This document shows positions 609 to 7,480 of a stretch of 8,484 nt of DNA, in pieces. The stretch spans positions 1 through 8,484 of the forward strand of contig NW_021828350.1 of NCBI RefSeq assembly GCF_006345805.1, read 5' to 3'. The stretch comes from Octopus sinensis (Eukaryota). A program made the position numbers and the translations under genes. Every line of letters begins with the position of its first letter. Position 1 is the first letter of the stretch. The notes under the pieces were generated by a model that made no database searches, had not been told where the DNA came from, and was given only the letters and a program-made list of their open reading frames with translations.

Positions 609-786
609 AAGAGAGGAGAGGGAGAGTTTACGGAAAAAAACAAAAGATGAATACGGGTAGTGTACAAAACAAACAGATGTATTAGTATAATGCTGAGGAA
701 TAGAAAAAGTCTTTTACGTTTCGAGCCTACGCTCTTCTACAGAAAGTGACACAGAAAACAAGGAGAGAAAAAAAGGCGAGAAAAAA
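609..786 (-). mobile_element. Penelope-like element terminal (pLTR-type) fragment 1
   Basis: Purine-rich island between microsatellites containing a minimal hammerhead motif. Shares the GTATTA...GCT(C/G)AGGAA...ACGTTTCGAGC...GCTCTTC...GAAA layout with 6412-6616 and 7261-7480. PLE assignment is inferred from the known association of such hammerheads with PLE termini; no RT or GIY-YIG coding sequence is in view. Confidence 0.7.
711..746 (-). ncRNA. Minimal type I hammerhead ribozyme motif, variant core CUGUAGA
   Basis: Minus strand: CUUU-CUGUAGA-A-GAGC-GUAG-GCUC-GAAA-CGUA-AAAG. Stem I CUUU/AAAG, stem II GAGC/GCUC, palindromic ACGU in place of stem III, predicted cleavage after GUA (715). Confidence 0.75.
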
Positions 787-1719
787 TATATATATATATA
801 TACACACGATGGGCTTCTTTCAGTTTCCATCTATCAATCCACTTACAATCTTTAGTGAGCCCGAGGCCGTATTAGAAGACATTTGCCCCAGATGTTACGC
901 AGTGAGCCTGAACCCGGAACCATGTGGTTGAGAAGCAAATTTTTTACCACACAGCTACACCTGCGCCTCTATAATGTGTTTGTAACACAAGTCCATTGAC
1001 AGATTTTTATGTCAGGCATTTCACATCTAAACATGTATACACGAATAGTACAGTACGTAGAAAGCGATTTTAATTTAATCTTGTTTTATTTTATACATTG
1101 AATTTTTCTGCAGTATGGCAAGTTTCCACAATACCATTGAATGCTTCATTTCTATGAACAAATATAAAGGAATGTTTCTGATGTATCGTGACACGAATTT
1201 CGTTTAACCAGGCAGCAGAGAAATTGTGAAATGCTTCAGTCGTTCTCTTGAGTCTTGTCAACGACGAAGATCCACTCGTTCCGGGAGAGATTTTATCTTT
1301 GACAATTTCAGAACATCATGCCTTCTTACGGTGTATTTACCTTTAACATAATTCAGAGATGGCGAACTGCCTTTCATTAATTACTCTATACATGTTATTG
1401 GTTAATTCCGTCTTACTGAGTGCTAGAATCCACGAATAGAAAACACACTGAATATATTTGGCAATCAACCGATGATTAGCTAATATAAAATCAGTAATCG
1501 ATTCACTTTGAGATTTGCTGATCAGCAGCAGAATTTTACATTCATAATTTCTTTTGCAGCAGTATCTCTTATCATTTAGAGGTTTTCTTTTATCTTTTTC
1601 AAGCGTTACTTCAGCTCCAAGTATATTTTTCGGAAAGGCGTTTATCTGGATGATTCTTTAACACATCGGACCAAATACTTAGTGGCATTTACTTCGGCTC
1701 TTATTTTTATTTTTTTTTA

Positions 1720-1890
1720 CTTCAAATCTCGGAGAAGTCAACTCTGTTTTTCATCCTTCCTGTGTCGCTAAAATATAGTACCAGTCATGCACTGGGATCG
1801 ATATACTCGTCATCTCCCCGCCAGCAAAAAGAAATTAAAAGTTTATAAATTTGCCGACTTTGAGCGTAACTTTGAAAAACTTATTATTAT
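1720..1890 (+). mobile_element. Degenerate SINE (family B), copy 1
   Basis: TTCAAATC (B-box remnant) ... TTTCATCCTTCCTGTGTCGCTAAAATATAGTACCAGTCATGCACTGGGATCGAT, homologous to 3945-4030; ends in TTATTATTAT. The central block resembles the conserved Deu/Nin-type SINE domain from memory, unverified. Confidence 0.65.
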
Positions 1891-1892
1891 GA

Positions 1893-2040
1893 AGAGTTCA
1901 AATCACGCCAATGTTAACTGCCTCTGCCTTTCATCCATTTGGGATGAGTTTGGGGAGCGATGAACTAAGTCACCTACTGGTATCGATGAAGATCTGCTAA
2001 CAGCGTTTCACAAACTTCAAACCTTGTGCTTATGCGAATA
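1893..2040 (+). mobile_element. Degenerate SINE (family B), copy 2, directly after copy 1
   Basis: GAGTTCAAATCACGCC ... TGCCTTTCATCCATTTGGG ... TACTGGTATCGATG ... CCTTGTGCTTA, followed by an (AAT/AAC)n tail. Confidence 0.6.
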
Positions 2041-2089
2041 ATAACAACAACAACAACAACAACAATAATAGTAATTATAATAATAATAA
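2037..2089. repeat. (AAT)/(AAC)n trinucleotide microsatellite
   Basis: Directly visible. Confidence 0.95.
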
Positions 2090-2224
2090 CACCATGTCGT
2101 GCACATATGGTTGTGCTGCATGTGTCTGGTGTACCCTTATCAGACAGGTAGTCATGATGGGTATACTGGGCTTCGTATATTTTACTCCAGTGTCACTTTG
2201 ATGGCATGCACTGCTCGCTCACTC
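2090..2224 (+). mobile_element. Short (AAT)n-flanked insertion, probably the 3' end of a 5'-truncated non-LTR retroelement
   Basis: 135 bp of higher-GC sequence sharply bounded by (AAT)n on both sides, with extensive G.U-containing pairing potential on the + strand. Family identity not established. Confidence 0.55.
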
Positions 2225-2275
2225 AATAATAATAATAATAATAATAATAATAATAATAATAATAATAATAATAAT
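2225..2275. repeat. Perfect (AAT)17
   Basis: Directly visible; gives the poly-Asn in ORF 2099..2353 and abuts the LINE fragment. Confidence 0.98.
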
Positions 2276-3462
2276 ATCAGAATGGAATTCGGACTGAAAA
2301 AGTGTGATGTGTTAGTCTTGAAGAAAGGCAAATCAAATGTATGGACGGGCTAGTGACACCGTTAGGGGAGGTTATGAAGCAGATAGAAGAGACGGGTTAT
2401 AAGTACATGGGGATACTGGAAATGGATAAATTGATAGAGAAATAAATGACTGAAAAAGTTTAAGGTGGAGTACTTGCACAGACTGAGACTGATCCTTAAG
2501 TCGAAATCAAACGGATGGAATAAGTTGGAAGCTATCAGCACCTCGGCAGTTTCATTCCTTAGATATGGAGCAGGAGCAAACTATAGGCATTAGACGAACT
2601 AAACAGCTTAGACAGAAAGACGAGAAAGTTGCTGACTAGATATGGGATACTCCACCCAAGAAGTGACAAAGACTGACTGCATGTACCAAGAAAAAGAGGG
2701 TGAAGAGGACTGATTAGATGGATGCAAACACAGCATTAACGCAGAAGAAAACAAGGAATGCATGAACAGTTTCATAGGGATACTGAAGATAAGACAGACG
2801 TAGAAAAAAGATGGTTATGGAAACTAAAAGTGATTTAAAACCGAAAATGGAGACTCTAATCTGTGCTGCTCAAGAGCAAGCATTAAGAACGAATTGCAAC
2901 AAATTCAGAATAGACAACACATCAGAAAGAATTTATGGAAAAAATGGTGAAAACGTATGGCATATTACCAGTCAATGTACGCCACTCGCTCAGAAAGAAT
3001 ATAAGAAACGTCGTGACAACACAGTAAGGATTGTCCAATGATAAGCCAAAGATCCTATGGGATTTTGTGATTCAGCTCAACCATGCGATAGACAATAAGA
3101 AACCAGGCATAGTGTTAATTGTGAAAGAAAGCAAACGATGTGGGATTATAGATATAACATGCCCAGCTGACAACATCGTAGGCGATAAGGGAGAAAGAAA
3201 AGTCGATAGATATAACAGGTTAGCTTGGGAGGTTAAGCAGTTGTGGTCGCAGTTGTGGGGAGATGAAACAGTTGTGGTAGTACCAATAATTGTCGGAGCC
3301 CTAGTTACAGTGAGTAAAATTCTTGAGAAGTACATGGAACAAATAAGGGCTGCGATAACGATGGAGAACTTGCAGAAAACAGCACTGCTTGGAACCACTC
3401 GAACCCTCCGGATGGTGCTCGAAAAATAAGGAGTGTTACTTTAGTTCACTGGTAGTGAACAG
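2276..3462 (+). mobile_element. Decayed 5'-truncated R4/Dong-type non-LTR retrotransposon: RT C-terminus, thumb, CCHC knuckle remnant, restriction-like endonuclease, start of 3' UTR
   Basis: Translation across frameshifts: IRMEFGLKKC; GYKYMGILE; EYLHRLRLILKSKSNGWNKLEAISTSAVSFLRYGAG; LDRKTRKLL..HPRSDKD*LHVPRKRG*RGL; ETLICAAQEQALRT; ENVWHITSQCTPLAQKEYKKRRD; ILWDFVIQ..KKPGIV..IIDITCP..KVDRY..VVPIIVGAL..LQKTALLGT; stop TAA at 3427-3429. Contains stops, frameshifts and internal deletions; the catalytic PD motif reads PG. Confidence 0.92.
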
Positions 3463-6174: not shown

Positions 6175-6411
6175 ATATATTTATAACGTATGTATATATA
6201 TTATTATATATATTATATATATATATATATATATATATATATATATATATATATATATTATACATATACATTCATACATACATATATTATATACATACAT
6301 ATATATACATATATATATATATATATATATATATATATATATATATATATTTTATATATATATATATATATATGTTATATATTATATATATATATATATA
6401 TATATATATAT
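6175..6411. repeat. Long imperfect (TA)n microsatellite
   Basis: Directly visible; source of the YI-repeat ORFs. Confidence 0.97.
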
Positions 6412-6616
6412 AAAGTTAATCCAAACAAGGAAGCACAAAAAAACACAACAACGCGAGGACGTGGAGCAAATATAGTATTATTGGACGCTCAGGAAAGAAG
6501 GAAAGAAGGAGGGTTTAACGTTTCGAGCGGAGCTCTTCGTCGGAAATAGGAGAAGGAAAGATCCAGAGAAGGGAAGACAGAGGAAAAAAAAATCGCCAAC
6601 GGTACACATGAGGTCA
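6412..6616 (-). mobile_element. Penelope-like element terminal fragment 2, flanked by (TA)n on both sides
   Basis: Starts AAAGTTAATCCAAACA right after (TA)n, contains the hammerhead at 6514-6546, and aligns with 7261-7480. Confidence 0.75.
6514..6546 (-). ncRNA. Minimal type I hammerhead ribozyme motif, variant core CCGACGA
   Basis: Minus strand: UUU-CCGACGA-A-GAGC-UCC-GCUC-GAAA-CGUU-AAA; predicted cleavage after GUU (6517). Confidence 0.78.
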
Positions 6617-6655
6617 TATATATAATATATATATATATATATATATATATATATA

Positions 6656-6915
6656 CACTCTTTTACTCTTTACACTTTAATCTTTTACTTGTTTCGATAA
6701 TTTGACTGTAGCCATACTGGAGCACCGCCTTTAGTCGAACAAATCGACCCCATGACCCATGACTTATTCTTTGTAAGTCTAGTACTTATTCTATCGTCGC
6801 TTTTGCCGGACTGCTAACTTACAGGGAAGTTAACACACCAGCATCGGTTGTCTAGCGATGTTGTGGGGGGGTGCACAAACACAGACACCCAAACATAATA
6901 CACACACATTCATAG
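6656..6915 (-). mobile_element. SINE family A 3' half, tandem unit 1
   Basis: Reverse complement homolog of 5225-5420; no tRNA head adjacent. Confidence 0.88.
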
Positions 6916-6957
6916 ATATATATATACATATATATATATATATATATTATATATATA

Positions 6958-7215
6958 CACTCTTTTACTCTTTACACTTTAATCTTTTACTTGTTTCGAT
7001 AATTTGACTGTAGCCATACTGGAGCACCGCCTTTAGTCGAACAAATCGACCCCATGACCCATGACTTATTCTTTGTAAGTCTAGTACTTATTCTATCGGT
7101 CGCTTTTGCCGGACTGCTAACTTACAGGGAAGTTAACACACCAGCATCGGTTGTCTAGCGATGTTGTGGGGGGGTGCACACACAGACCACAAACATATAC
7201 ACACACATTCATAGA
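6958..7215 (-). mobile_element. SINE family A 3' half, tandem unit 2
   Basis: Near-identical to 6656-6915 at an offset of 302 bp. Confidence 0.88.
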
Positions 7216-7260
7216 TATATATATACATATATATATATATATATATATATATATATATAT

Positions 7261-7480
7261 AAATTTTAATCCAAACGGGAAAACAAAAAAACAACACAAA
7301 ATGGAACAATTACAGTATTATTATTAATAGGAGCGCTCAGGAAATGGAAGCAGGAGGGTATGACGTTTCGAGCGGAGCTCTTCGTCGGAAACATAAAGAA
7401 GGAAGAGAGAGGAAAGAAAGATCCAAAGCGGGCAACAGGGATAGAGAAAAAAAACGACTGGTGTTTACGAGTTACACATG
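7261..7480 (-). mobile_element. Penelope-like element terminal fragment 3 (may extend further right)
   Basis: Starts AAATTTTAATCCAAACG right after (TA)n, the same terminus as 6412. Shares an identical ACGTTTCGAGCGGAGCTCTTCGTCGGAAA block and GAAAGATCCA with fragment 2. Confidence 0.75.
7358..7392 (-). ncRNA. Minimal type I hammerhead ribozyme motif, variant core CCGACGA, GUC site
   Basis: Minus strand: GUUU-CCGACGA-A-GAGC-UCC-GCUC-GAAA-CGUC-AUAC; stem I has one U.U mismatch; predicted cleavage after GUC (7362). Confidence 0.78.

Follow-up and report, generated by a model that had tools for sequence, protein, structure and literature searches.

Penelope-like elements (PLEs) carry minimal hammerhead ribozymes, for which Cervera and De la Pena (2014; PMC4209133) gave the consensus core CUGANGAH; in the rows of their alignment compared here, the core departs from this consensus only at positions 3 and 8 (U3-A8, or U3). 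The PAc hammerhead of a Poseidon element from Anolis is described as protein-assisted, with cleavage dispensable for insertion in vitro (PMC11167929), and Naiad PLEs are described as having no hammerheads (PMC8557442). Natural changes in the U-turn of the core have also been reported: an A6C variant from phage Bcep176 cleaves slowly and prefers Mn2+, and a U4C variant of a viroid has little activity in vitro but still allows the viroid to infect (PMC3088659, PMC7151607). Here, we describe three hammerhead motifs in an 8,484-nt contig of Octopus sinensis (NW_021828350.1, assembly GCF_006345805.1), referred to as the window, together with the PLE families to which these motifs belong. One PLE clade of this genome contains two lineages, each of which has fixed a change in the CUGA turn of the hammerhead core (A6U in one, U4C in the other) and kept multiplying, and on balance we think that the variants are probably slowed ribozymes that would cut only as dimers or with the element's protein.

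Results

The initial annotation placed three hammerhead motifs on the minus strand of the window, and the sequence bears this out, with H17 at 715, 6517, and 7362 (Table 1). The 29-nt block shared by the two U4C copies and the triplets GUA, GUU, and GUC are as it described, as is the minimal type I architecture for dimers with a palindromic stem III. All three copies have the features of PLE minimal hammerheads, namely palindromic ACGU replacing stem III, an extra A between A9 and G10.1, and an NUH triplet; the A after the core, which the annotation included in the shared layout, is a published trait of PLE hammerheads (PMC4209133). None of the window copies has the canonical core CUGANGA, copy 1 being A6U and copies 2 and 3 U4C. 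A shifted register restoring A6 in the A6U core fails because it would remove G8. Rfam covariance models gave no hammerhead match at E≤10 in the window, nor at E≤1 in the full-length elements L123 and L173, and no match to any other ribozyme in these scans.

Judged by the surrounding sequence, the three motifs are minimal hammerheads in the pseudo-long terminal repeats (pLTRs) of separately inserted, 5'-truncated PLEs of three subfamilies, with insertions at microsatellites. Their common orientation, to which the annotation had drawn attention, therefore has no meaning. A tandem retrozyme or dimer unit built from the three copies is ruled out by the different subfamilies and the separate (TA)n insertion sites; a non-LTR retrozyme, made of short tandem repeats without an open reading frame (ORF) and each with a hammerhead, does not describe copies that are dispersed 3' ends of ORF-bearing elements.

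Table 1. Hammerhead motifs and the element fragments containing them (positions in the window; UTR, untranslated region)
Feature	Position	Strand	Basis
Copy 1, minimal type I hammerhead, CUUU-CUGUAGA-A-GAGC-GUAG-GCUC-GAA-ACGU-A-AAAG; core CUGUAGA (C3 at 742, A6U at 739), extra A 735, stem II 734-731/726-723, palindromic ACGU 719-716, predicted cleavage after A715 (H17)	711..746	-	sequence
Copy 2, minimal hammerhead, UUU-CCGACGA-A-GAGC-UCC-GCUC-GAA-ACGU-U-AAA; core CCGACGA (C3 at 6543, U4C at 6542), predicted cleavage after U6517 (H17), stem I of 3 bp because of a private deletion 5' of the core	6514..6546	-	sequence
Copy 3, minimal hammerhead, GUUU-CCGACGA-A-GAGC-UCC-GCUC-GAA-ACGU-C-AUAC; core CCGACGA (C3 at 7388, U4C at 7387), family-fixed U-U mismatch at stem I pair 2.2-1.2, predicted cleavage after C7362 (H17)	7358..7392	-	sequence; 35/36 copies
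5'-truncated pLTR fragment, A6U subfamily (GUAG loop, N7=A), between microsatellites	620..786	-	75-78% identity to pLTRs of full-length L122/L123
5'-truncated pLTR fragment, U4C/GUU subfamily, (TA)n on either side	6413..6616	-	sequence comparison
3' end (pLTR and CA-rich 3' UTR) of a young U4C/GUC PLE family, cut off by the end of the contig, past which the ORF would be expected	7262..8484	-	85-91% identity to full-length L173 over ~1.2 kb

The motif is far above chance in the 2.72-Gb genome, where GAAGAGC-N3,4-GCTCGAAACGT occurs 31,371 times and its reversed control 0 times. Exact genome counts over both strands for the class with a 4-nt loop give 16,186 copies with U at position 6, against 274 with A and 468 with either C or G, and in the 3-nt-loop class CCGANGA stands at 7,292 against 3,956 for CUGANGA. 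Over the four classes counted (27,708 copies), 4,230 cores are canonical and 23,478 variant, a ratio of about 5.5:1 for the variants. With the core left free, the 97 in-register rows of the 4-nt class (the first 100 rows, less two with deletions and one of another family) include 96 with U6, and N7 in the same rows is U in 46, A in 20, C in 19, and G in 12 by hand count. In the 3-nt class, again with a free core, C4 accounts for 65 and U4 for 35 of the first 100 rows; since only 4 of the 65 C4 rows show G5A (hand count), CpG decay accounts for few of the U4 copies (about 4 of 35), and this tally together with the flank tree described below rules it out as the origin of the canonical UCC-loop copies.

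A tree built from the flanks alone (209 copies, core not used) falls into two clades, one with GUAG and the other with UCC/UUU loops. The canonical copies with a 4-nt loop number 30, of which 23 are scattered within the A6U clade, where they look as back-mutations would, and the remaining seven fall with canonical 3-nt-loop copies, mostly of an older GUCU/UUU-loop family. The U4C copies make up a group of 66 tips that includes one U4, with one further U4C copy outside it. The odd cores are lineage-fixed and do not reflect post-insertion decay, which is excluded by the genome counts and by the occurrence of the same variant in both pLTRs of intact elements. A fixed family variant was what the initial annotation had proposed for the U4C pair, and the counts, the paired pLTRs, and loci collected independently of the core all agree with it. 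Its treatment of A6U as a single odd copy undersold a variant that is real and is the largest family in the genome. The tabulation by subfamily that it suggested, done here by loop class, has variants outnumbering canonical cores in both classes; the subfamily consensus, which it had left as possibly canonical, is not so for A6U or for U4C, although a canonical UCC-loop sister subfamily (the 3,956 copies above) is present. It was also right that strict motif searches overlook the family, given the Rfam results and the share of canonical cores among the counted copies (4,230 of 27,708).

Some motif copies have a GIY-YIG frame upstream. A genome search with the GIY-YIG protein returned 30 loci, with CUGUUGA downstream in 25, a deletion in one, no motif in reach in four, and the canonical core in none. 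Six of 12 longer stretches have two pLTR motifs 4.3-4.5 kb apart that flank a frame for reverse transcriptase (RT) and endonuclease (EN), with the variant in both pLTRs; the frames of these six comprise RT (DKG, YIDD), a C-X4-CxxC linker, and GIY-YIG, and are open over 835-1,009 codons in five. The flanking direct repeats are 650-800 bp long at 92-96% identity in L122-L124 and 1.2 kb at 87% in L173. When the 3' UTR of window copy 3 is used as query, 40 copies are found at 98-100% identity, and among 30 loci found in this way CCGACGA is present in 25 and U4 in none. This U4C/GUC family encodes the same type of protein, and in L392 and L393 a pair of U4C motifs, spaced by 6.1-6.3 kb, encloses an open frame of 1,008 codons. 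As both variants occur on open-frame elements with paired motifs, the carriers look intact and recently mobile. A second, canonical hammerhead on the sense strand was found in none of three full-length elements.

That these are PLEs, as the annotation had supposed, is borne out by RT and GIY-YIG frames between motif-bearing pLTRs. A single ORF encodes a PLE-type RT followed by a C-terminal GIY-YIG, the motifs lying within the 835-1,009-codon frames, and is surrounded by direct pLTRs. Pfam RVT_1 scores above the cut-off in the A6U family and below it in the U4C family, GIY-YIG scores below the cut-off in both, and homologues carry both domains. The C-X4-CxxC of the A6U and U4C lineages agrees with the CX2-5CxxC linker before the endonuclease as defined in PMC8557442. 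We assign the elements to EN+ PLEs of the Neptune/Nematis type; their linker is of the Neptune type, which Nematis shares.

The genome also holds further GIY-YIG PLE families (L054, L089, L165, L178), including in L178 a Penelope/Poseidon-like frame without the linker. Hammerhead pLTRs of one subfamily often lie beside or inside elements of another, some of them inverted (L180, L393, L115, L131), and because ACGU is common to all subfamilies, mixed canonical/variant dimers are conceivable. An array of three tandem 448-bp units at 97% identity (L391:119-1461; G000:C8, ~80.49 Mb), each with a canonical CUGAAGA pLTR hammerhead and a piece of a short interspersed nuclear element (SINE), is a local triplication mimicking a retrozyme array. 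In the U4C/GUC family the 3' UTR is about 3 kb long and consists mostly of degenerate (CA)n repeats (upstream of the motif in L134-L162; window 7550-8484), and as these are copied with the element, the family spreads microsatellite-like DNA. The A6U stretch is contained in runs of four other organisms, and one organism-B contig matches L123 5736-5814 with zero differences. A U6-to-A row is absent from one variant listing, which says little, since known N7 variation is absent from that listing too.

As outgroups, we used 80 loci of related elements from metagenomes, fetched by protein, in which motifs were located with a relaxed descriptor. The 27 motifs from these other organisms are canonical in 25 cases, with one single-copy U4C and one G8C, and shuffled controls gave 0. 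The U4C case (CCGACGA at L291:2266-2293) is a PLE copy whose close relatives (L277) are canonical; U4C arises in other organisms too, in one copy. In the protein trees the host elements form one clade (support 98-99), within which the A6U lineage (78-91) and the U4C lineage (100) are sister groups. From canonical outgroups and sister lineages we infer that the canonical core is ancestral and that A6U and U4C arose independently. Within the UCC lineage the order of change is less certain. U4C is nested among canonical copies in the flank tree (support 0.85, excluding one U4C copy), but the protein tree has the one canonical ORF copy inside the U4C group (support 34), so that polarity is set by the outgroups only. 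Proteins of the A6U families are 60-96% identical, and the U4C lineage is shallow, with about 82-97% protein identity.

Differences at four-fold sites amount to 0.32-0.46 between young and older A6U families and to 0.57-0.61 between L125 and the young U4C family; silent ORF sites serve as no more than a proxy for neutrality, and decay in old copies adds to the differences. Identity between the lineages nevertheless extends to 20 of the 22 constrained motif positions (P ~4e-6), and within the A6U clade to all 22, changes being confined to the positions that a hammerhead leaves free (N7, loop II, and H17). In a set of 242, H17 is U in 118, A in 86, C in 36, and G in 2, and G stands at position 17 in just 140 of 16,186 copies genome-wide, in keeping with the NUH rule invoked by the annotation. 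The covariation it suggested looking for is found in stems I and II: among 13 hand-picked representatives, five of them from other organisms, 94% of stem cells are paired (22-44% in slid controls) and seven of eight pairs have changed on both sides. At stem I pair 2.4-1.4, for example, the A6U clade has C-G and the UCC clade G-C. Since the other core positions are fixed despite silent-site divergence and N7 takes all four bases, the fold is under selection.

In the predicted folds of monomers, the core is buried in a hairpin. Pairing of U4-G5-U6 with A15.1-C-G is predicted for each of the six U6 states folded. With U4C, C-G would replace the U-G pair of that register; the predicted minimum-energy fold of U4C copies uses another register.

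Elsewhere in the window, positions 2280-3430 (plus strand) hold the decayed 3' part of a non-LTR retrotransposon, with several stops, beside an (AAT)n repeat. It contains RT-thumb-like pieces, a zf-RVT-like stretch (65 aa at 43% identity to an L170 frame bearing zf-RVT), and what we take to be a restriction-like endonuclease region. Between hammerhead copies 2 and 3, positions 6646-6881 and 6948-7184 form a near-identical 302-bp direct duplication of a SINE-like repeat with a (TA)n flank, which is either a recent tandem duplication or an assembly artefact. More copies of the same SINE-like families lie at 290-470, 810-965, and 5004-5414, on both strands, each adjoining microsatellites.

Discussion

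If the variants are slowed ribozymes, the reading toward which we lean, cutting would take place in a full-length or tandem transcript with two motifs, whose ACGU palindromes would pair to form stem III. Residual cleavage after H17 is plausible, since the motifs retain G8 and G12 as catalytic residues, the C3-G8 pair, and the NUH site; U6 or C4 would weaken the U-turn and lower the rate, and monomers would be inactive hairpins. Slow cutting may cost little and could even be favored, because uncut RNA can serve as a template for reverse transcription. On the best reading of these data, fast cleavage would be dispensable for these elements.

Several observations weigh against this. PLE hammerheads are described as weak to begin with (PMC4209133), and a deep mutational scan reports all single mutants of the CUGA turn to be poorly active (PMC9901934), so that a further change may abolish cutting altogether. 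A U-U mismatch is fixed in the 4-bp stem I of the young GUC family (35 of 36 copies), the avoidance of G17 comes down to only about three changes at subfamily level, and U6 is unchanged at that level, N7 having changed at least three times. A new non-catalytic structure would fit the predicted U6-A15.1 pairing and the never-changing U6 as well. Contigs from runs guessed to be RNA cross the cleavage site uncut and show no pile-up of ends there, though contigs cannot show ends and so speak neither for nor against cleavage.

It is possible, though we consider it clearly less probable, that the variants no longer cut and that the fold acts as a structural signal, for protein binding, assembly of the ribonucleoprotein, or positioning of the RT start, with U6 selected for the extended hairpin. 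The predicted pairing of U4-G5-U6 with A15.1-C-G in all six U6 states speaks for this, and U4C would strengthen the same register; yet the minimum-energy fold of U4C lies in a different register, with energy differences of just 1-2 kcal/mol, and the hairpin leaves C3 unpaired, a base that pairs with G8 in the active fold and is nevertheless fixed at subfamily level. Two separate core changes and a stem I mismatch, all in the most abundant lineages, are what one might expect if cutting had been given up, as are the success of Naiad PLEs without hammerheads (PMC8557442) and the insertion of cleavage-dead PAc RNA (PMC11167929), but variation of N7 and H17 within the catalytic rules and covariation of stem I in the hammerhead register (2.4-1.4 as C-G or G-C) are not. 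A bolder proposal, which we hold more tentatively still, treats A6U as a re-purposed hammerhead, catalytically silent, locked by U6-A15.1, and selected over tens of thousands of retrotranspositions as a protein-recognition signal. If so, one genome would hold a series that leads from canonical to U4C, to U4C with a broken stem I, to a non-catalytic signal.

That the variants are instead fully active, with an unrecognised tertiary contact (such as the GUAG loop with a stem I bulge) or a different metal compensating for the change, seems improbable to us. U6 has persisted through families with 60-96% protein identity, the A6U clade has kept its GUAG loop, and A6C is reported to move metal preference to Mn2+ without killing activity (PMC7151607); neither U6 nor C4, however, is accompanied by a second-site core change, and a double-mutant scan gives no rescue of the CUGA turn except by the C3-G8 swap (PMC9901934). 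We give even less credit to dead relics, whether these stem from a hitchhiking founder mutation with the rest of the motif uneroded as yet or from ordinary decay after insertion. The U4C lineage is indeed shallow (protein identity of about 82-97%), and a stem I pair has been lost in its GUC branch, so that erosion may have begun there. The genome counts, and the agreement of the variant between the two pLTRs of intact elements, nonetheless exclude decay after insertion, CpG decay covers only about 4 of 35 U4 rows (G5A in 4 of 65 C4 rows, hand count), and the A6U clade keeps 22 of 22 positions despite a 32-46% difference at four-fold sites. For A6U, a relic is already largely refuted.

The kind of change described here is already known, as isolated natural U4C and A6C variants and a PLE-family U3-A8 are on record. 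Our literature comparison, which did not extend to the Lunse 2017 survey, so that prior notice is possible, found no natural hammerhead A6U (the sole match for A6U with hammerhead terms concerns twister) and no case of variant cores having become fixed in a genome's dominant PLE families. Among the top 30 of 905 matches for the literal variant cores none is on ribozymes, no prior report was found on octopus, Penelope, and ribozyme together or on degenerate PLE cores, and the searchable parts of the PMC4209133 supplement yielded no octopus entry. PLEs of the canonical clades all carry a hammerhead, which is weak in vitro and, in the one system that has been reconstituted, assisted by protein; Naiads have none. 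On a single scaffold, the octopus genome offers a natural series of alleles, namely canonical, U4C, U4C plus the stem I mismatch, and A6U, each with ORF-bearing copies, which amounts to a natural test of whether PLEs need to cut their RNA and whether cleavage rate matters for spread. If A6U cleaves, an "invariant" position is tolerant in nature and descriptor-based censuses undercount ribozymes; if it does not, a ribozyme has turned into a structural signal.

With the metazoan PLE minimal hammerheads (PMC4209133), the octopus motifs share their presence in both pLTRs, a short stem I, G10.1-C11.1, the extra nucleotide between 9 and 10.1, palindromic C-G at 15.2/16.2, an NUH site, and thousands of truncated copies, but U6 and C4 occur in none of the alignment rows compared. 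The dimer architecture and the PLE association are also those of the short-stem-III PLE hammerheads that cleave as dimers (Lunse, Weinberg and Breaker 2017, via the review PMC6765202). PAc is likewise a pLTR hammerhead of an element with RT and GIY-YIG, and provides a model of protein-assisted, dispensable cleavage (PMC11167929); it differs in belonging to the Poseidon clade and in overlapping the start codon, whereas the octopus motifs lie ~430-750 nt upstream of the first ATG, and the text compared reports no variant core for it. Finally, the natural A6C and U4C hammerheads (PMC3088659, PMC7151607) have the same two U-turn positions changed, with activity that is low but real. Those are single isolates in ribozymes with tertiary contacts, whereas in the octopus the base found at position 6 is U rather than C, the motifs sit on a minimal scaffold, and the variants are fixed in thousands of copies of ORF-bearing retrotransposons.

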